Shown one piece after another: positions 4,986 through 60,879 of a stretch of DNA of 64,000 bases (its first letter is position 1; each line of letters starts with the position of its first letter). A model generated the notes under the pieces. That model made no database searches, was not told the DNA's origin, and was given only the letters and a program-made list of their open reading frames with translations. Origin of the DNA: Ginglymostoma cirratum. Taxonomy: Eukaryota. Made by a program: the position numbers and the translations under genes. Location: assembly GCA_024137785.1 (NCBI GenBank), contig JAHRHZ010000140.1, positions 27,653,010 through 27,717,009 of the forward strand, written 5' to 3'.

Positions 4986-5125
4986 TGACAAAATCTAGTA
5001 TGGCAGTTTAAACTGTCTGTATGATATTAGAGACACTATACGTTATGATAGCAAGGTGATGCAATGTCACATGATGTCTCTTGCAGCCTCATGGCAAGAT
5101 GAAGCCACTGTAAGACGTAACTTAA

Positions 5126-5443
5126 AATCACAGAATCCCTAGTGTGTGGAAGCAGGCCATTCAGTCCATCGAATCCACACCAGCCCTCTGAAAAGCATCC
5201 CCCCAGGGCCAGCCCCCGACCCTATCCCTGTAACCCCGCATTTCTCATGGGTAATCCACTTAACCTGCACATCCCGAGGCACTGTGAGCAATTTAGCATG
5301 ACTAATCCACCTAACCTGCTCATCTTTGGACCATGGGTGGAAACCCATGCAGGTACAGGGAGAATGTGCAAACTTCACACAGACAATCGCCCGAGGATGG
5401 AATCGAACCCAGATCCCTGGCACCGTGAGGCAGCAGTACTTAC
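5126..5443 (-). mobile_element. HE1-type tRNA-derived SINE
   Basis: Reverse complement of the family seen at 13163, 27825 and 41902. B box GGTTCGATTCC and CR1-like tail are present; the 5' A box is lost. Confidence 0.88.
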
Positions 5444-7379
5444 AGTCCTATGTACTTGATGTTATTTATTTCCTTACCTCAGCAGTCTCTGGAAACATTC
5501 TTTAACAGCATAGCACCAAGGATATTGTATTGACAAGTTCATTACTGCAATTATAACTAAAGTTAACTCTTGAAAACCACTTTTTAATTCTGGAAATATT
5601 TCTGTTTAATTCCTCGTTGCTAGTACAGTTCTTTCAGTGTCCCAGGCAGTGTAAGATTTTAATAGTATTAAGAGAAGTGGAGGTTAACACTATTCAGCTG
5701 GATGAGGAATGTGAGCATAGGCAGGAAGGTGTTGCCAATGCAGGATGTATGCTTTATTGGGCCAAAAAATAAACTCAGTGTTGAAATTCTTGAATCTTCA
5801 CAAACCTCTCAACATGGAAGTTTATCTGGATCTGAACTCCACTGGCATTAAAAAAGGCATACAATAATTTCAAGAACCAGTCCTTACGGAAAAGTCCTAC
5901 TGTTAGGGTTACATTTAACAGGATTGCAAAAATCAATAATAATCCAATATGACTCCTGTGTTGATATACTGGAGTTTGTCTTGCAAATGAGAAAGGGAAA
6001 CTTTGTCGCAGCTTTGATGAAAAAAAACTAAACTATTTTCCTCAGATTCTTTTCAATTTAAGACATTACTGTTTTACTTTTGGCAAAGGCTGCTGACCCC
6101 TCCAGATCAGAAAGTCCAGCCGGTGGACTTTGCCCTCATAGATGCCAATCAATAATACACATGGCAATAAGGCACTTTGTTTTCTGTTAAACAAACATAA
6201 TTCTTTCCCATTCTTTGCAGAAGCAGTTGACAGACTGTGCAAAATGCCCCATGTTTATTTGCACTGTTGTAAATAGAATGGGGTGCCAGGCACTTTACGG
6301 TTATGTGGGCTGATGCATTTTTGCTAAAAATTTACATTTCTTAGCACAAAAACCTGGTTACAGGCCATGCATCTACGCTGAGCTGAGGAACGAGAGGCTG
6401 GGAAGAGAGAGGCAGGAAGGAAAAAGCTTCAGTGTCACTAATAAACATATCAAGTATGTGCTTAGAGATGGGCTCAAGTCTCCACAAAAGCAAGCCTCAG
6501 CGGCTGCTTGTAAATCAGCCTGTCCTTATTACATATTCTGATGTGCGTGCTTTGAGAAGCTTGAGTCAAAAAGGACAATACTCATTCTACAATGAAAGTC
6601 TGTAACATTTCAGGCCCCTTTCAGATTGTGTTTTTAAAAAACAGAACCATCAGCTACTGCCAAGCTGCTCTGAAAATGTTGAGAAGTTTGTTGAGAAGAT
6701 TATGTTTGGCTTTCAGGGATACAATAAATAAGTCAGTAATGTGACGATAGGACCCCATTCCCTCCAACTGTACATCTTTAGCCACAAATGTAGTTCTTAA
6801 TTTCAGCTGTTTTACAATATTTGGGGCACAAGGCTGTATTTGATTCAGTGGAAAGCTGAGTTCCCAGTGTCTACAGTACATGGGACCCCACCTCCCCCTC
6901 TATTGAAAAGCTGAACAGCTTGTTGCATGGAGCACACTGTATAAAGTGTCTTTGTTTTACTGCTGATGCACAAAGACTGCTTGTCCTTGTTCACGTCTCT
7001 TGCTCTTTGCCACCCAGTCATATCCTATTCCAATGCCACCCCTGCCAAGTAAATTAGAGATTACTCCTCGCTAAATAGCGGCCTTTGTGTGACTGCAATG
7101 TTGCCGGTACGATCTAGCAGAAAAACAAAAGGGAAGCCATTTCTCTAATTCTCATTAATCTCCATTGCATGCACCACAACAGAGCTTAGATGGTTTAAAT
7201 GTGTTAAACTGTAGCATATGAAGTGCGCATAAGCAGACTAGTGACTCCCATCAAACACACGCACTCATACACACTCAAACGGAAGGATTAATCCACTGGT
7301 ATAAACTAAACGTTTACAGTTTGAAAAGATGGTGCACAATTATTAAACAAAGAGAAAAGAAACAAGAAGTTTTCCTTGC

Positions 7380-7401
7380 CTGGAAAATGTTGCTTCCACA
7401 T
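7380..7401 (-). CDS. CTBP2: Alternative short first coding exon of CTBP2 (MWKQHFP-G), GC donor
   Basis: Minus strand reads ATG TGG AAG CAA CAT TTT CCA G|GCAAGG. This matches my recollection of a vertebrate CtBP2 isoform starting MWRQHFPGIRPQIMNG. Phase 1 is the same as the RIBEYE exon, CAG|GCAAG is the GC-AG donor consensus, and the surrounding DNA is repeat-free. Confidence 0.78.
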
Positions 7402-7790
7402 TCTTCACATTAGTATTTTAGTAAAAATCACACATGGTACATGGTAGCATAGAAAAAAAAGGACTAATTAAAAAAAACACAAGCAGACACTCAGTGTTCA
7501 GGGTCTAGTTCGCAGCCTCCGCCAGTACAACTACAAGAGATGTCTTCGATCAAGCAGTCCCCCTGCCCACAGCTGCAACATCTCGAGACAAATGTCTCTT
7601 TGAACACAAATGGAAAGAAAAGGCTTTTGTCCTGAGCTCCGAGGAAAGGTCCAGGCTCCTCTAACACGGATAGAGTCACCTTCACACCACTGTAAACTCC
7701 TCACAGCACTCGCTCTGGGCTAGCTTTTAACTAATCACAATTTATTCCAACCCCTCGAAAAATCATGTGAGCCAGCCCTTTTCTAAAAAA
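7402..7790 (-). promoter_or_regulatory. Putative 5'UTR and internal promoter of the MWKQHFPG exon
   Basis: Unique sequence with retained CpGs. TATA-like TTAAAAG (7730-7724, minus), homeodomain TAATCA (7732-7737) and E/M-box TCATGTGA (7763-7770). The TSS is inferred near 7700. Confidence 0.5.
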
Positions 7791-8699
7791 AACACACACA
7801 CTTAGAAACCTGACATACTGAATGTTATTTTTAAAATTATTATTTTGGTTTGCAGTTTGATTTTCCTTTTACAACGCCTTCTGGTCTTCCTGCATTTGTT
7901 TATTTTTCTTCTTGTTTTCGTTTTACACCCCAGTTGATTTCAATTGAGAATCTGAGAGCTTTGATATTTCTGAGCTTTTTATTTCCATTTATCTCAATCG
8001 CCTGTCTCCTCCACCACCTCCCCCTATACCCTTTTATTTCTGACATCTAGACTTTACACGGCCTATCAGCAGGGTGGGAGGGGAGAAACAAGCCCTTCCG
8101 TATATCTTTGAAATCATGGGCAGTGCTGCCCCATGGGCAGATGGCAGGACATAGCTGTTTTCAACTCCCACAAACCCCCCACCAAACTGAGATGCTCCAC
8201 AGATACCAGCAAAACAGGAACAAATCTAACCAGATGGTGGCACGTCAAAATTTGACAATCAGACAGACATCAGCAGCAGAGTAATTTTAAAATCCTTACC
8301 CAATACATTCACTCGGCTTTGACGGGACACCTTGGGCGGTAGATGCACTTTAATCACTACCGCACTGCTACAAATGCAAAACTGTCCCAGAAAGTTTGAA
8401 AGAAACAAAGGAATCCGAACATAAATTTGGAAAGCTAAGAATAAGACAAAATCCGAGATAGCCCACTCAGGCCCAACTCCACCAAAAGGTCATCAGTTAG
8501 GATTCAAGCTCTCCATCTGTTGTTACCAGATTTGTAACAGTGTCAAATGAAGAATGGTTAGAAATTTGTCTCAGTGTCAGGAATACAAAATTAACGTTAG
8601 CGTTTCTTAGCCATTTGAATCACATTTACCTTAAAGAGTAAAGCAGTATTCTTGCTGCAGCAGTTGTGGAACAGTAGTAACATCAAAGCTTACTTACAG

Positions 8700-26759: not shown

Positions 26760-27800
26760 ATTCTGTAAACATGCCCAAGACAGCAAAAACTTTCTTTGCT
26801 TGATTACTGACAGCTAACTTGAACATGTTCACCCCAGAAAGGTCTGTCCTTTGCATCTGATACCAGGATGCACCATAAACACGTGAGATGGAAGTTATTA
26901 AGGCTTTTATTTCTCGATATATGTAAACCATCCAGGTTTTGTTGGCATACAGCAACGTGCTGAGGATACAGAGCTTGTAGCTAAGCACCTTGATCATGTC
27001 GGTTACTTATATGTTACCCATGCCCACTTTGTTAGTCCAGCAAATGTGGTGGCTACCTTTCCAACGCACAGTGGCTCCGTGGTTAGCACTGCTGCCTCAC
27101 AGTGCCAGGGATCCAGGTTCAATTCTACCCTCGAGCGACTGTCTGTGTGAAGTTTGCACATTCTCCCAGTGTCTGCGTGGGTTTCCTCTGGGTGCTTTGG
27201 CTTCTTCCCACGGTCCAAGAATGTGCAGGTTTGGTGCACTGGCCACGCTAAATTACCCATAATGTCCAGGGATGTGTAGATTAGGTGGATTAGCCATGGG
27301 AAATGTCGGATTACAGGGATCTGGGTGGAATGCTCTTTGGAGAGTCGGTGTGGACTTGTTGGGCCAAATGGCCTGTTTCTATGCTGTACGGATTCCATTC
27401 TGTTCTTTCATGCTGAGCTCTTGGTCAAGAGACAGGTTGTCTGCTGCTGTGAAGCTTAGCTAGAAGGCTTTGCAGACAGCCTCCAGGGATGGGTTACTGA
27501 ACCTGATCATGGGAGACCTACACCTTGTACAGTAACTATTGTTACTTTTAATTCTGACAGTGAGAAAGCATGTGATACATGATGGGACAGATGATCCCAG
27601 GAGCTTTCAGAACTAGTACCCTGTCTGGGAAATAATGCAGCATCATCAGCTCGGGTTCTCTGATGAGGACACACCACAATTTCATCATGGTTTTCAGTCT
27701 TGACTGGTGGCCAGTGATCATTGTCAAAAAACTTTTATGCGTGATTGTCAGATCAAGGCAGGATGGACTCTTAGCTATCCGCCCATTTGCCTCTATTAGC
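26760..27800 (-). mobile_element. RTE-clade LINE remnant interrupted by an HE1 SINE
   Basis: Minus strand shows VLIRE..ADDAAL (about 27630-27672, frameshifted) and YKLCILSTLLYANKTW, both RTE/BovB-type motifs. Confidence 0.65.
27066..27401 (+). mobile_element. HE1-type SINE
   Basis: tRNA-like head gtggctccgtggttagcactgctgcctcac...ggttcaattc, conserved body and tail. Confidence 0.9.
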
Positions 27801-27824
27801 CAGGAAACCATGTCCTTTCCTTTT

Positions 27825-28186
27825 GGGTGGCATGGTGGCTCAATGGTTAGCACTGCTGCCTCACAGCGCCAGGGACCTGGGTTCAATTCCACCCTCAGGT
27901 GACTGCATGTGTGGAGTTTGCACATTCTCCCCATGTCTGTATGGGTTTCCTCCAGGTGCTCCGATTTCCTCCCACAGTCCAAAGATGTGCAGGCTAGGTG
28001 GATTGGCCATGGCTAAATCGCCCATAGTGTTCAGGGATGTGTAGATTAGGTGGGTTATAGGGGGGGTGGGTCTTGGGGGGGGGGGGGGGGGGGGGTGGTG
28101 CTCTAATGGTCGGTGTGGACTTGTTGGGCCGAAGGGCCTGTTTTCCACACTGTAGGGATTCTGTGATGATTCAGTGATTTCTATGA
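27825..28186 (+). mobile_element. HE1-type SINE with internal poly-G
   Basis: Full head (A and B boxes), body and tail; G-run at 28060-28095. Confidence 0.9.
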
Positions 28187-28899
28187 AAGAAACAAAGGAC
28201 TGCTGACATCAGTAAAATTAAATCCCAGCAGGAAGGGAGTCAGTGTATTGGACTCTTGGCAGCAGTGTTGCCCAAACCAAGGACCCCCAGGGGACGGTAG
28301 GGCCGGAGCCTGGATTCTTGGTGGCATCGGACAGCAGCAGAGCCAGGGTCTCCTATTCCCAGAATGAGATTCCTTGAGGACTGGAACACCTTCCAGTAGC
28401 CCTGGAGCCATGCCTGAGACCCAATCTAAACCGAAGGTAATCTCTAAGTTTATTGTGCCATATTGTAGTGGCAAAACATTTTTCACTGTATCTTCAAGAT
28501 GTATGTGATAATAATATCATTCATTCATGTATTAGGGAAAATAAAAAGAAAATTATACACTCCAGATAGAAAACATCAAACTACCTAAATTACTAAATGT
28601 AAGCCATATGCCTTCAGTTAGTCTATAATCCCTCCTTTTATTACATATGATTGCTGCAACTCTGTGCCACACTTCTTTTGGTAGTATCAAGAAATATTAT
28701 TAATGGGATTTTTCTGACAGTCCTCTTTATTTCATAAAGTGCATGGGGTGGAGTACTGGTTAAATAATTTCAATAGACTTGAACCTCAAGGTTCCTTGTG
28801 ATATAACAAGTAACTTGAAACATGCTGCCTAGTAAATAAATAAAAATTACAGGTTCAAATGTGAATGGATTGTTTGACAGCTCCAAGCGAGGTTTTACA

Positions 28900-41182: not shown

Positions 41183-41901
41183 CCAGTATCCTTGTTGTTT
41201 CCATCTCCCCCAGCTGCTTTCCAGTCTCCCATCTGCCATTTGCAGTACCATCATCTCCTCCCAGCCTCCTTGCGACCTCTCTATCTCCTCCTTCTAGACC
41301 CATCTCCCTTCAACCCCTTTATGGCCTCTCTCACTTCTTGCAACCTCTCTGAAACCATTCTGTTCTCTCTAAACAACCCACGACCTGGTGGGAAAATTGC
41401 CACCTCAGCAAATGAAGTGTAGCTCTCCCCCTCCCTATCCCAGCATTGCCAGAAAGTCTGTTCTTGGACCCGGCTCCTCCTCCTGGTTGTGGGGAAAATC
41501 GAAACTGGCTCCCAGCCCAGCCCAGTCCTACCCTCTGGCTGCCCGTTTCTGGATCACATCTCTATGTTCCTGAATCTCAGCCTCCTTGCTCCCTCAGTGA
41601 CTCCCTCACAGCTGAAACTTACACAACTAGCCGCTTACTGCTCATCCAATCACATATCGCTTCTCTTCCAAGTTTGCTGTGAATAGGATCATTGTAAACT
41701 TATAAGCAGCAAGTATAGGAAAGAGCAGCCTGTGTTTCCAGGAACAGCTACTCAATTTCCTTTCATTCTGTCATTGGGGGATGATAATTCACCAATTGAT
41801 TATCCATATGTTTACATTTTCCCAGGCAATTGGGGGATTTCAGAGGTGGTTTTCCTCCCCAGACCTATGTATTTGGAACCTAGGTTTCTGCTTTTTATTC
41901 A

Positions 41902-42234
41902 GGGCAGCACGGTGGCTCAGTGGTTAGCACTGCTACCTCACAGCGCCAGGGACTAGAGTTCAATTCCACCCTCGGGCGACTGTCTGTGTGGAGTTTGCAC
42001 ATTCTCCCAGTGTCTGTGTGGATTTCCTCCAGGTGCTCCAGTTTCCTCCCACAGTCCAAAGATGTGTAGGGTAGGTGGATTGACCATGTTAAATTGCCTG
42101 TAGCGTCCAGGGACATTTGGGTTAGACATGGGGAAACACAGGGGAATGGGTCAGGGTGGGATGCTCTTTGAAGGGGCGGTGTGGACTTGTTGGGCTGAAT
42201 GGCCTGTTTCCACACCCTAGGGATTCTATGATCT
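41902..42234 (+). mobile_element. HE1-type SINE, full length
   Basis: gggcagcacggtggctcagtggttagcactgc...gagttcaattcc...ggattctatgat. Confidence 0.92.
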
Positions 42235-43559
42235 ACTCCATAGTTAGATTCCTGTACAATTGGGTACAGGTATGAGAATTAAATCATGGTGATTTTGAAG
42301 ATTAAGGGCTGACATGCCTAGGTTATCCAATTTTCTATAATTTTATTTTTCATACCTACAAGAAACCTGTACACAGGAGTTTAGGTTTGGGGGCATGGCT
42401 TTATGTCTGTGTAAAACTGACTACTGGTGCAAGGTATTCTCCATTCTAATCCTGAGAGGTGGCAGTGGAATAATCAAGTCTGCAGTTGTCCAACATATGG
42501 ACTGGGGCTTAATAGCAGTTGAGCTGAGGCAGGGGAGGAGTTTGACAATGTTATAGAGCTGGCATTAAGCAGTACAACACAACAGTCTGGTTCAACTGAG
42601 ACTATTCCATGCTCATCACTCTCCACCTTAACTGAAGCCAATATCCTCAATTCAACATAGACCAAGGACTAAACCTGGGATTTTTCTCTGTTGCCTGCAA
42701 CTGAACCACTCATATTATATGCTTTGCATTTGTTTTTCACAATAATATAATAGTCCAATTTTTTTGTCAGAGATAACAAATTCCACTCCAAACACAACAA
42801 CTATTCTATGTATTCACTGGAATAGTCATGGGTGATTTTTCTGCCTTCATAAAGCCATGCATTGTACATTATTTGGAAATTTTCTAGAAGGCCTAATTAT
42901 TTAAAAAGAAACAGTCATTTCTACTTTTTACTTTTATTGTTAAGGCTGGATAGATTAGTGGTCTGTTCCTTTTGTTTTTGAGAATGATTGTGTTTGTATA
43001 TCATATTACTAGTTTGACTAATAATTCTGATGATTGGTTAATGTTCTGCATGAATAACTGCATGCATCAAAAATCCAAAAGCAATTTTCTCCAGGTCCTT
43101 CCTCAACAAAACCTTTCAGCAACTAAAATGATTCTATAATCTTTCTCTGATTATGGTCAAACTCTCTTGTTACCTAGCAACACACAATTAAGGAATATGT
43201 TTTCAGATCCACTTTGCAATCAGGCCATTATCAGATAAAATTACTGGAGCAACAAATGTCAAGCTCATGCAAATGAATTTGTTACACAGATAGAATTTTT
43301 TTCACTTTAAAATACAAATAATCTAACATTAACAGAATTTATCAGACTTTTCACCTCCTCTACCTGTGAAGGACAAAACAAGGCACAATTGAGGAAAATG
43401 ATCACATTAATCAAACGAGAACAGAAGGTAAACTACGACCAGAGTGACAGAGATACAGTGGAAGTGTGCGCATGTTTGTATGTGTGTCAGCCCAGGATAG
43501 GTGTGGAAATGGGACAGGTTCTTTTTCTTTTGTTCCCCCTCCCTCTTTTCCTCTCTTTC

Positions 43560-55427: not shown

Positions 55428-55975
55428 AGAATAGAATCATAGCATCCATAGGGCGTGGAAGCAGGCCATTCAGTCCATCGAGTTGACACTGACCCTTTGA
55501 ACAGCGTCCCAACCAGACTCACTCCCTACCCTATCCCTGCAACCCTACATTTCCCATGGCTAATCCACCTAACTTACACAACCCTGGAAACTATGGGCAA
55601 TTTAGCATGGCCAATCCACCTAACCTCCGCATAGATCATACAATTGCTACAGTGTGGAAACCGGCCATTCGGCTCAACAAGGCCACACTGACTCTCCGAA
55701 CAGCATCCTACCCTAACACTGGAACCCTGTATTTCCCATGGCCAATCCACCTAACTTACACATCCCTGAACACTATGGGCTATTTAGCATGGCCAATCCA
55801 TCTAAGCTGCACATCTTTGGACGATCAGAGGAAACTGAAGCACTCGGAGGAAATCCATGCAGACATGGGGAGAATGTCTGTGTGAAGTCTGCACAATCGC
55901 CTGAGGCGGGAATCAAACCCGGGTCCCTGGCACTGTGAGGCAGCAGTGCTAACCACTGAACCACCGCGCCACCCT
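55428..55975 (-). mobile_element. Compound HE1 SINE (one head, two 3' halves)
   Basis: Head at 55975-55910; the tail/body unit occurs twice (55428-55632 and 55633-55812). Confidence 0.88.
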
Positions 55976-58361: not shown

Positions 58362-59114
58362 CTGCATTTTATTCAAATCTATCACTTATAGCATAACTTT
58401 CAATTCTCTCACATAAAAGACTTTTCCAAATTGTGACTTTATATTAGATACATTGAACAGCTGGCTTCTAATACTTCTTTTAATTATTTTATGACATTCC
58501 ACTGTACTGCAGTGTAAGGTTATGTAACTAAAAGTGAAAACCTCATGATAACAGAATACGGGAATGCTAGTGAGACAACTGGTATTCCACCATCACCCTA
58601 CCGTAAATAGTGACAGGTACCAAATGTAGAGTTCAGTCTTTAGGTAGGTTAGGGTTGTCTTATACAATATTAATCTACATTATACAGAAAACCCCCTTGT
58701 AATTATGATAATTGCTGATTCCTCCAGAGACTCAACTGTATGATACGATAATATTGTGACTAGAGATTGATACAAAATTCCTTTCTAGCTACCAGGATAC
58801 AAACAACTGTATTAACAGAAAAGTAACCAATGTAAGGCTACCATGATTTGCTTAATATTTATGATCAAGTAAATAACACCGGAGAAAACAATACAAATGA
58901 TTGAGAGTTTGAATATCACTCCACAAAGAGATTTCCAGCACATTAATACCTTTCAACAAAGTTTCTATCAAAACAAAAATAACATAAGTCCATAAAAAGT
59001 GCAAACAAGTTTAGATTTTGTTTACAATAGACAAGAAAAACTATTGCAGATATCGTAGGATCCTCAAGCACACATATCACACAAAGTTAAAATATATAAA
59101 AGAAAATGAATTAC

Positions 59115-60879
59115 TTGGTTCAGGTGAAGCCATTGTGGAGACAATAATTGGTGGTCCTGTGCGTCTGGTCACTTTCTGGTTTGCAGTAGTCGGCAACCTG
59201 TAAGCTGAGCTTGTAGGTACCAGCATAGATTCCATGTGCGCTCCTGGCTTTCGGAGAATCTGAGGACTACTGTGAGGGCTGTGTGCTGGAGAATGAGCTT
59301 GGTTGCGCTCCCTTGTCATAAGTTCAATGGGTACAGTGTAAGTAGTAGAATAGGCAGTTTTAGGACCTGGATTTGGAGTAACCTGTCCTGTATTCATTGC
59401 TATTCCAGACTGTGCACTATAGATAGGCCCCGATCGCAGATTTTGCAGCCCAACAGAATTGCTGTAGCCTGAGAAGCTTGGAAAATGATTTCCTAATCTT
59501 CCAGGCCCAGATGAACCATAGGTTGCGGTTTCCAGGAGATGTTGAGATGGGGCACTCGATGGTCGGCGGTTCAATTCAGCAAGCCTGGGTGACATTGGTT
59601 GCAATGCCATTGGTAGCTGCTGAACAGCAGAACTATCTATTGTAGGGAGCATTCCTGGTTGGACTCCATAGTCATTACGCATTAGCTCACTTCTGTGGCT
59701 GAAGCTGTTTGAACGTGTTCTTGTACGAGTACTGGAATTTTGCAGCTCTTGTCGTAACTGCATGTCCGCTTTGCAACTCTGGACAAGCCGTAACAGCAAC
59801 CGGGCCTGACCCAGATTTGGAGTCACTGACTTAATGTCATTTTCTTCTAACATAGCTAGGCAGCTTGTTGAATCAAAACCTTGTTGCAGTAAAGCAGCAA
59901 CTGTACTTTCGGAAAGCCCCTCTGAGCGCAATAGTGCTAGAAATTCAGCCTTGTTGTCCTGTCCAGGGACGTGGCCACGAGGTATCATGGTGTTGTCATA
60001 ACCATCATAAACTGGCTTTGACACCAAACTATCTCTCTGCAAGCTGAAATCAGGCATCATTCTAGTTGCCATTCCTTGTCTAGGAGTGTGATTCAATACA
60101 CTAGGAGACATCATTCTATCCAAAGAGTTCTCACATCGAGATCCAGTCGCAGGATCAACAACTAAACATGTTGGAGCGACCTGTCGGGCACCTGTGGAAT
60201 CACTGTACATCTGTTTATTAGTGAGAGATGGTGGCTCTGTTCCGTAATGAGGGAGAGGCGTTTCAGCACCATATCTAGCAGGGGAAGGATCTCGACTACG
60301 CGTTTTCTGTCCATCAAGAATCAGCTTACCGGAAGGATCATGGTACATACGATTTATCTCAGGACGAGGTGACCTCCCTTGTGAGTGGTCCCATGACATT
60401 CTTCCTCCTGACATCCCATAATTCTGCGGTGATCTGTTAAGCATATGATCCCTATAAAAACGTGCCTCTTCAGATGGCCTAACGCCCAAAGCAGGCTCTG
60501 GATAGTAATCCTGAGGAGGCACTGAACTGCGTCCAGACATAACAGGCTGCTTTTCGTAAGAATGAGAGAAATCAGGCACAGGACTTTTCCTCACAGGTCT
60601 GCGGTAATACCGATTGGGGTAAACTTGGTCAAACCCCAAGTCTGAATGCATGTAACATTCGTAGTTATGTTCATTTCCCTCTGTCAAGTTGTTGCTGTGC
60701 ACTCTGATGCTATCTGGGTCGTCAGAGACAATTTCACCGTAGTAGTTTAATGAATTTCTTCTCCTAGGATGCCTTGCGTATTCACATACACTGTCGTGTT
60801 CCCAGTTGTCTTCACAAAATCCACTAGAGTCCCAGCTCTGAGAGCGGCCAACAGTTGTATGCTTGCTAGGGACAGGCAT
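59115..60879 (-). CDS. CTBP2: RIBEYE A-domain exon (ribbon-synapse-specific first coding exon of CTBP2)
   Basis: Only long ORF in the window. It matches hallmark RIBEYE A-domain blocks: MPVPS.H..GRSQSWD, ARQVAPTCLVVDP, EFLALLRSEGL...QQGFDS...NLGQAR, RRPSSAPSQHLLET, TAYSTTYTVP, QKVTRRTGPPIIVSTMASPEPS. There is an in-frame TGA 18 nt upstream of the ATG. The exon ends CCA A|GTAATT (GT at 59114-59113), phase 1 as needed to join the shared (S)IRPQIMNG exon. Confidence 0.96.

Follow-up and report, generated by a model that had tools for sequence, protein, structure and literature searches.

A conserved alternative exon, probably a first exon, with a GC donor in the RIBEYE intron of a shark CTBP2 gene and its predicted CtBP2 isoform

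Three isoforms of CTBP2, namely CtBP2-L, CtBP2-S and RIBEYE, are in print according to the available parts of PMC12014503 and PMC3382178, and two isoforms are described in the accessible text of a study of chick and human retina (PMC8793361). The available part of a preprint on CtBP evolution (10.1101/2022.06.23.497424) treats N-termini of the RIBEYE type only. Deletion of residues 4-14 of CtBP2, which hold the protein in the nucleus, causes a partial shift to the cytoplasm; loss of residues 1-25 gives an almost complete shift according to Verger et al., and Bergman et al. report that N-terminally deleted CtBP2 remains mostly nuclear (all from the accessible text of PMC1592084). The NLS-less CtBP2-S reaches synapses, and the lower CtBP2 band, which is enriched in synaptosomes, has been assigned to it (PMC3382178, in part). 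Translation of the human CTBP2-L mRNA begins at two AUGs, with leaky scanning to Met26 (PMC2995425, in part). The current count is three CTBP2 products from two promoters, and a fourth N-terminus implies a further one. An earlier note on the DNA analysed here spoke of a third N-terminus; since L, S and RIBEYE were already in print (PMC12014503, available part) and CtBP2-S is known, the exon described below supplies a fourth, and shark models show more.

The window, that is the whole stretch of 64,000 nucleotides that was analysed, matches positions 27653010 to 27717009 of contig C140 of the shark genome G000. All features listed in this text are on the minus strand, and those that define the exon and its gene are the following.

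7380..7401, minus strand, coding end of the alternative exon: MWKQHFP and the first base of Gly, phase 1
7374..7379, minus strand, GC 5' splice donor CAG-GCAAGG, beginning a 12.4-kb GC-AG intron that leads to the shared exon
59115..60879, minus strand, RIBEYE A-domain exon of the same gene, 90.5% identical to residues 1-589 of the Hemiscyllium model P0209

This identity to a Hemiscyllium model makes the shark origin of the window sound. The RIBEYE exon ends in a phase-1 GT donor at 59114, and the canonical KHKVKRQ exon, phase 1 as well, lies at C140:27752600, about window position 99,600. The IRPQIMNG exon shared by the isoforms starts at C140:27648004 (L001:4995), about 5 kb below the window, and is preceded by a pyrimidine tract and AG; eight B-domain segments downstream match model P0188. 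The order is therefore canonical, RIBEYE, alternative and shared exon, and the RIBEYE and KHKVKRQ exons upstream of the B-domain exons identify the locus as CTBP2. The window sequence reads an ATG at 7401-7399, which begins the seven codons MWKQHFP, then one further base at 7380 and directly 3' of it GCAAGG at 7379-7374. The earlier note had described precisely this start, its 22 coding nucleotides, its GC donor and a phase equal to that of the RIBEYE exon, and all of it stands, as does its position some 52 kb into the RIBEYE intron (51,713 nt below the RIBEYE donor).

A search of sequencing runs with positions 7330-7900 matched 21 runs, 16 guessed to be RNA and five unlabelled and genome-like; seven of the former (X1-X6 and X14) and one of the latter (X16) were examined. 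The RNA-type label is a guess for all runs, none being recorded as RNA, and the runs are assembled contigs, which are blind to transcript start, strand, tissue and level and drop rare forms. Contigs from four of the seven RNA-type runs, from four studies and four organisms (X3 from organism C, X4 from D, X5 from E and X6 from A), join 7380 to the shared exon, the junction that the earlier note had set as one of its two tests; the other, conservation of the peptide, likewise came out in favour of the exon (below). The 27 loose letters at 7379 are in all four cases exactly those of L001:4968-4994 (27/27), and because 7379 is a G, as is the base with which the shared exon begins, the joint is placed at 7380, with the frame open. 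These contigs are 90-99% alike to the window and hence come from relatives, not from its own species; in such relatives splicing joins the alternative exon, in frame, to the second exon that the isoforms have in common. The X2 contig is 100% identical to the window and spans only 7556-7721, X1 stops at 7379 without a loose end, and X2 and X14 give leader pieces only. None of the seven RNA-type runs covers the intron below 7379, and the genome-like X16 crosses 6902-8595 as one piece. No difference is listed at 7379-7412 in any of the five covering contigs (X1, X3, X4, X5, X6).

With CAG and a GC donor at one end and a pyrimidine tract and AG at the other, the intron is of the GC-AG (U2-type) class, the GC being read in the window and the junction in the relatives. 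Among protein-coding junctions about 0.8% are of this type, with an enrichment in first introns (PMC7242645, available part), so that the donor, though uncommon, belongs to a known class. CTBP2 does not appear in two supplement files of that paper.

Could the exon have arisen by chance, reflect noise from cryptic splicing or be a processed copy? The RIBEYE intron occupies 59 kb of the window, and in it eight short phase-1 ORFs begin with ATG and run to a donor of this kind, GC in three cases; taken alone the ATG-to-donor pattern is within chance, and eight of the nine metagenome matches to the peptide described below also have no donor. Against this, the identical junction occurs in four organisms from four studies, the same peptide is found in three vertebrate lineages, and a degenerate form of the peptide pattern has a single match in the 4.36-Gb genome (none for the reversed control), where only three copies of the shared exon exist. 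The exon is thus judged real on splicing and conservation and not on its sequence pattern; junction and peptide conservation refute the reading as chance, noise or processed copy, which we consider hardly credible. The exon region is single-copy in the genome, unlike the repeat-like ORF fragments of the intron: similar fragments recur at window positions 5121-5459, 27003-28208, 41895-42278 and 55493-55885, among others, which suggests many copies of an interspersed repeat. A sequence check found no CpG island at the exon region.

The N-terminus is found in other jawed vertebrates. W[KR]Q[HQ]FPG is joined to IRP in 16 of the 684 proteins that were retrieved. These come from sharks, rays, bichirs, sturgeons, paddlefish, four teleosts and the bird Tauraco. 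MWKQHFPG is carried by six predicted shark and ray entries (P0188, P0192, P0207, P0210, P0219, P0229), the sources being Carcharodon and Chiloscyllium (one sequence on five contigs), Scyliorhinus canicula, Hemiscyllium, Hemitrygon, Amblyraja and Mobula birostris. MWRQHFPG, named in the earlier note as the start of a vertebrate CtBP2 isoform, does exist in predicted models of Erpetoichthys, Polypterus, Acipenser/Huso, Polyodon, Lates, Characodon, Caranx and Tauraco, and a catfish model reads MWRQQFPG. Bony vertebrates and sharks or rays therefore differ by one K/R change. As the peptide occurs in cartilaginous fishes, in ray-finned fishes and in one bird model, an origin of the exon in the jawed-vertebrate ancestor, as proposed earlier, is the parsimonious reading, the tetrapod side consisting of that one predicted bird model. 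The peptide is in none of 223 proteins of the PLHPRP type, which is mammal- and snake-like, in a sample where RIBEYE and canonical forms are over-represented, nor in 258 new proteins from ten tetrapod clusters, mostly RIBEYE forms; clustering hides such isoforms, so the latter result does not amount to absence. A search of 50%-representative proteins gave no further carriers.

A scan of a metagenome collection with the peptide pattern gave nine loci, of which eight, with no GC donor, look like chance and were rejected. The one kept, L044, matches 7373-7406 in 31 of 34 nt (E=1e-6), and the match takes in five bases ahead of the ATG as well as the GC donor, which is thus conserved together with the peptide. 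Its assignment to CTBP2 depends on this 34-nt match in an animal-like contig, which probably comes from a bony vertebrate because it carries the Arg variant. The three changes of L044 comprise one silent change and the Lys/Arg codon; as 63 changes are possible and seven of them are silent, at least two silent steps among three have P ~0.03. Conservation between the window and L044 is as high in the 12 non-coding nucleotides around the peptide as in the peptide itself, so that the constraint is partly on the RNA.

The exon had been called hidden and its GC donor easy for gene predictors to miss, but NCBI models the isoform in many sharks and rays. The predicted 433-aa CTBP2 isoforms XP_041066277.1, XP_038677658.1, XP_032889613.1 and XP_028651111.1 and XP_009978381.1, of 493 aa, are the same isoform as the product of the exon, with an identical N-terminus in sharks and rays and one K/R change in bony vertebrates. 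These models are automated and bear generic names, and the origin, donor, leader and function of the isoform are absent from the literature searched. In that literature, with most subscription journals outside its scope, no paper contained MWRQHFPG, or QHFPG together with CtBP, and no title or abstract described an isoform from such an exon. As the NCBI annotation carries it, the isoform is apparently undescribed in print rather than undetected.

The shared exon occurs three times in the genome, which defines three CtBP genes, on C140, C249 and C94. They agree with the CtBP1, CtBP1-like and CtBP2 of the available text of 10.1101/2022.06.23.497424. No similar peptide exon was found within 100 kb above the shared exons of C249 and C94, although the motif search also missed the C94 exon itself and introns may be longer, and a genome-wide pattern search gave no paralogous peptide exon. 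The KHKVKRQ pattern matches the C140 exon and one other place, by chance, in G000; the turtle model P0166, named CTBP1 isoform X1, has a KHKVKRQ N-terminus like that of CtBP2-L. Further N-termini occur among the models. A 26-residue cassette (AGAWWGNQQ...) stands between the canonical and the shared exon in P0189, P0198, P0199, P0214 and related ray models, and shark and ray models with it have 468-471 aa. It was not found in the window or in the 150 kb below and so probably lies above RIBEYE. MERDILIQQRC begins models of three rays, MTG those of bichirs and MSG that of the naked mole-rat (P0206, P0215 and P0244 for the rays; P0182, P0183 and P0267 for the others); MERDILIQQRC was not found in this locus.

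The exon had been taken to be 22 nt long. This is the length of its coding part, which forms its last 22 nt; the RNA-type contigs run unbroken from 7379 up to 7704 (X4, X5), 7715 (X6), 7722 (X3) and 7980 (X1), and therefore the exon measures 325-600 nt. Most of it is leader, in which the following features lie.

7402..7704, minus strand, core extent of the 5' leader as given by the contigs, with upstream ATGs at 7581, 7450, 7442, 7435 and 7410
7405..7410, minus strand, ATG-TGA start-stop, in frame, 3 nt above the main ATG
7418..7435, minus strand, short uORF of MCDFY and a stop, ending 17 nt before the main ATG
7523..7654, minus strand, near-invariant leader block that contains a 16-codon uORF (7581-7531)

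Longer leader forms reach about 7980 and bring the upstream ATGs to 7895, 7816, 7766, 7581, 7450, 7442, 7435 and 7410. The main ATG at 7401 has A at -3. The start-stop is kept in all five covering shark-like contigs and is missing from L044, whose leader has a four-codon uORF (MCRS and a stop) ending 8 nt before the ATG; the leaders of the window and L044 give no blastn alignment. From the difference tables, read by hand, the five covering contigs share three substitutions at 7413-7417 that create an extra two-codon uORF, and one at 7450 by which the ATG is lost. In X1 there are no substitutions in the 132 nt of 7523-7654 and 18 in the 203 nt of 7778-7980 (Fisher p=1e-4, the segments having been picked after inspection of the data), and X3 and X4 have one substitution in the block. 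No stable fold was found in the block (z=+0.97) and no Rfam family matches the leader.

Further upstream a candidate promoter and a second donor are found.

7724..7730, minus strand, TATA-like TTAAAAG, candidate core promoter by its sequence
7796..7801, minus strand, second donor, of GT type, following 7802 and spliced to the shared exon as well
7802..7982, minus strand, upstream transcribed zone in contigs of X1, X3, X4 and X14

TTAAAAG sits 26 nt above the start of the X4 and X5 contigs, is kept in X1 and is visible in the loose end of X3; as a sign of a promoter such a word is a hint only. Beyond 7722 the X3 contig has 39 diverged letters, and the loose ends at 7722 and 7893 resemble, by eye, the adjoining genomic sequence. 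No RNA-type run among the seven covers sequence above 7982. The joint at 7802 is seen in one contig of one run (X3 record 9, depth 5.1, with 14 loose letters matching the shared exon), and the X1 and X4 contigs read through this donor unspliced. The donor is GTGTGT in the window and, in the difference tables, nearer the consensus in X1 and X4. A transcript spliced there would carry no conserved ATG and would give the 420-residue CtBP2-S. The zone at 7802-7982 may be either a non-coding first exon or a long leader form, and the segment of the second donor (7796-7982) is likely a non-coding first exon for CtBP2-S. A start at 7816, reading MSG, can be set aside: X4 and X1 carry changes in its ATG or second codon, and the observed joint is at 7802.

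The placement inside the RIBEYE intron would also suit an exon internal to longer transcripts, be they RIBEYE or canonical, and contigs are blind to transcript starts. Nevertheless none of the seven RNA-type runs has an upstream exon joined to the alternative exon on a contig, with the reservation that contigs drop rare forms. Over 7700-7402 stops occur in each of the three frames, so that a transcript including the segment would encode a truncated protein, and the peptide is internal in no retrieved RIBEYE or canonical model, P0123 being a model with an upstream extension. We consider an internal exon improbable, and the lack of a contig with an upstream exon, together with the in-frame TGA 3 nt above the ATG, favours a first exon.

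We think it probable that this first exon has its own internal promoter and yields a translated, NLS-less CtBP2 isoform. Transcription would start near 7705-7760 and near 7980, and the 325-600-nt exon would be spliced through its GC donor onto the shared B-domain exon. Ribosomes would pass several short uORFs and initiate at the 7401 ATG, giving a predicted 433-residue CtBP2 that starts MWKQHFPG (here the MW form) and may be less firmly nuclear than CtBP2-L. Some ribosomes might scan on to Met14 and produce CtBP2-S, which the second donor at 7802 could yield as well. The region would then be a promoter dedicated to NLS-less CtBP2, and promoter choice would fix how CtBP2 is shared out between nucleus and cytoplasm, with no dependence on the canonical promoter, which lies about 92 kb upstream. 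As had been proposed, the N-terminus has neither the RIBEYE A domain nor the basic KVKRQR segment of nuclear retention (P0188 compared with P0187), and by analogy with the published deletions the product is likely partly, or more, cytoplasmic. Several points weigh against this reading: the five to eight upstream ATGs could suppress initiation at 7401, the junction comes from relatives of the window's species, the non-coding flanks are conserved like the peptide, Bergman et al. saw N-terminally deleted CtBP2 stay mostly nuclear, and the protein support for the MW form consists of predicted database entries.

These ATGs bear on a further, rather unlikely reading, in which the exon is real but serves as a regulated leader for CtBP2-S, ribosomes mostly starting at Met14 and the peptide being kept for its splicing and initiation bases. 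It would account for the five upstream ATGs in 7704-7402 with their in-frame start-stop, for the neighbouring 7802 donor, through which the shared exon receives a non-coding leader, and for the identity of the non-coding flanks between the window and L044, and leaky scanning is known for CTBP2 (PMC2995425, available part). However, no lineage seen departs from the frame or the phase, the coding differences are silent or conservative (K/R and one H/Q), the 7401 ATG has its A at -3, and CtBP2-S needs no in-frame ATG.

If the exon is translated from its own promoter, this is a modest correction to a much-studied gene, with no new mechanism and with sequence already in databases. The N-terminus is nearly invariant from sharks to a bird, and a further promoter would supply NLS-less CtBP2. 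The predicted mass of the MW form is 47.8 kDa, between 49.2 and 46.2 kDa, the latter being that of CtBP2-S, and with a difference of 1.6 kDa C-terminal antibodies would not distinguish the two. Knockouts of the canonical or RIBEYE exon would spare it, and it offers a cheap test of the division of CtBP2 between nucleus and cytoplasm. A role of the Met-Trp tip in stability or targeting is our hypothesis; a retained Met before a hydrophobic residue is the mark of NatC / Arg-N-degron substrates, and Met-Trp is in the yeast NatC list and absent from the human one in the available text of PMC11735805. A bolder and rather unlikely conjecture is that MW[KR]QHFPG has been a functional module since the jawed-vertebrate ancestor, in mammals too, that acetylation of Met-Trp sets half-life or targeting to membrane or synapse, that the MW form is the CTBP2 counterpart of CtBP1-S/BARS and that part of the synaptic 'CtBP2-S' band is the MW form.

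The closest described product is CtBP2-S (Verger et al. 2006, as cited in the accessible parts of PMC2995425, PMC1592084 and PMC3382178), which shares with the MW form the gene, the full B domain, the absence of KVKRQR and a size of about 46-48 kDa. CtBP2-S depends on the canonical promoter and starts at Met26, either because an exon is skipped or by leaky scanning, whereas the MW form has a separate exon below RIBEYE and is longer by 13 residues, eight of them unique. As this exon supplies an in-frame ATG 13 codons before the Met of IMNG, the two differ in their start site. RIBEYE, an isoform made from an internal promoter, is alike in having an alternative phase-1 first exon spliced to the same acceptor and present across jawed vertebrates (bioRxiv 10.1101/2022.06.23.497424, available part). 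It differs in contributing about 590 residues instead of eight and in its GT instead of GC donor; the MW form has in addition a long uORF-rich leader and is seen in several RNA-type runs. CtBP1-S/BARS50 also comes from a short ATG-bearing alternative first exon that yields an NLS-less CtBP with cytoplasmic roles (PMC3382178, available part), but it is a product of CTBP1, whereas the locus of the alternative exon carries RIBEYE and its paralogues lie on C249 and C94.
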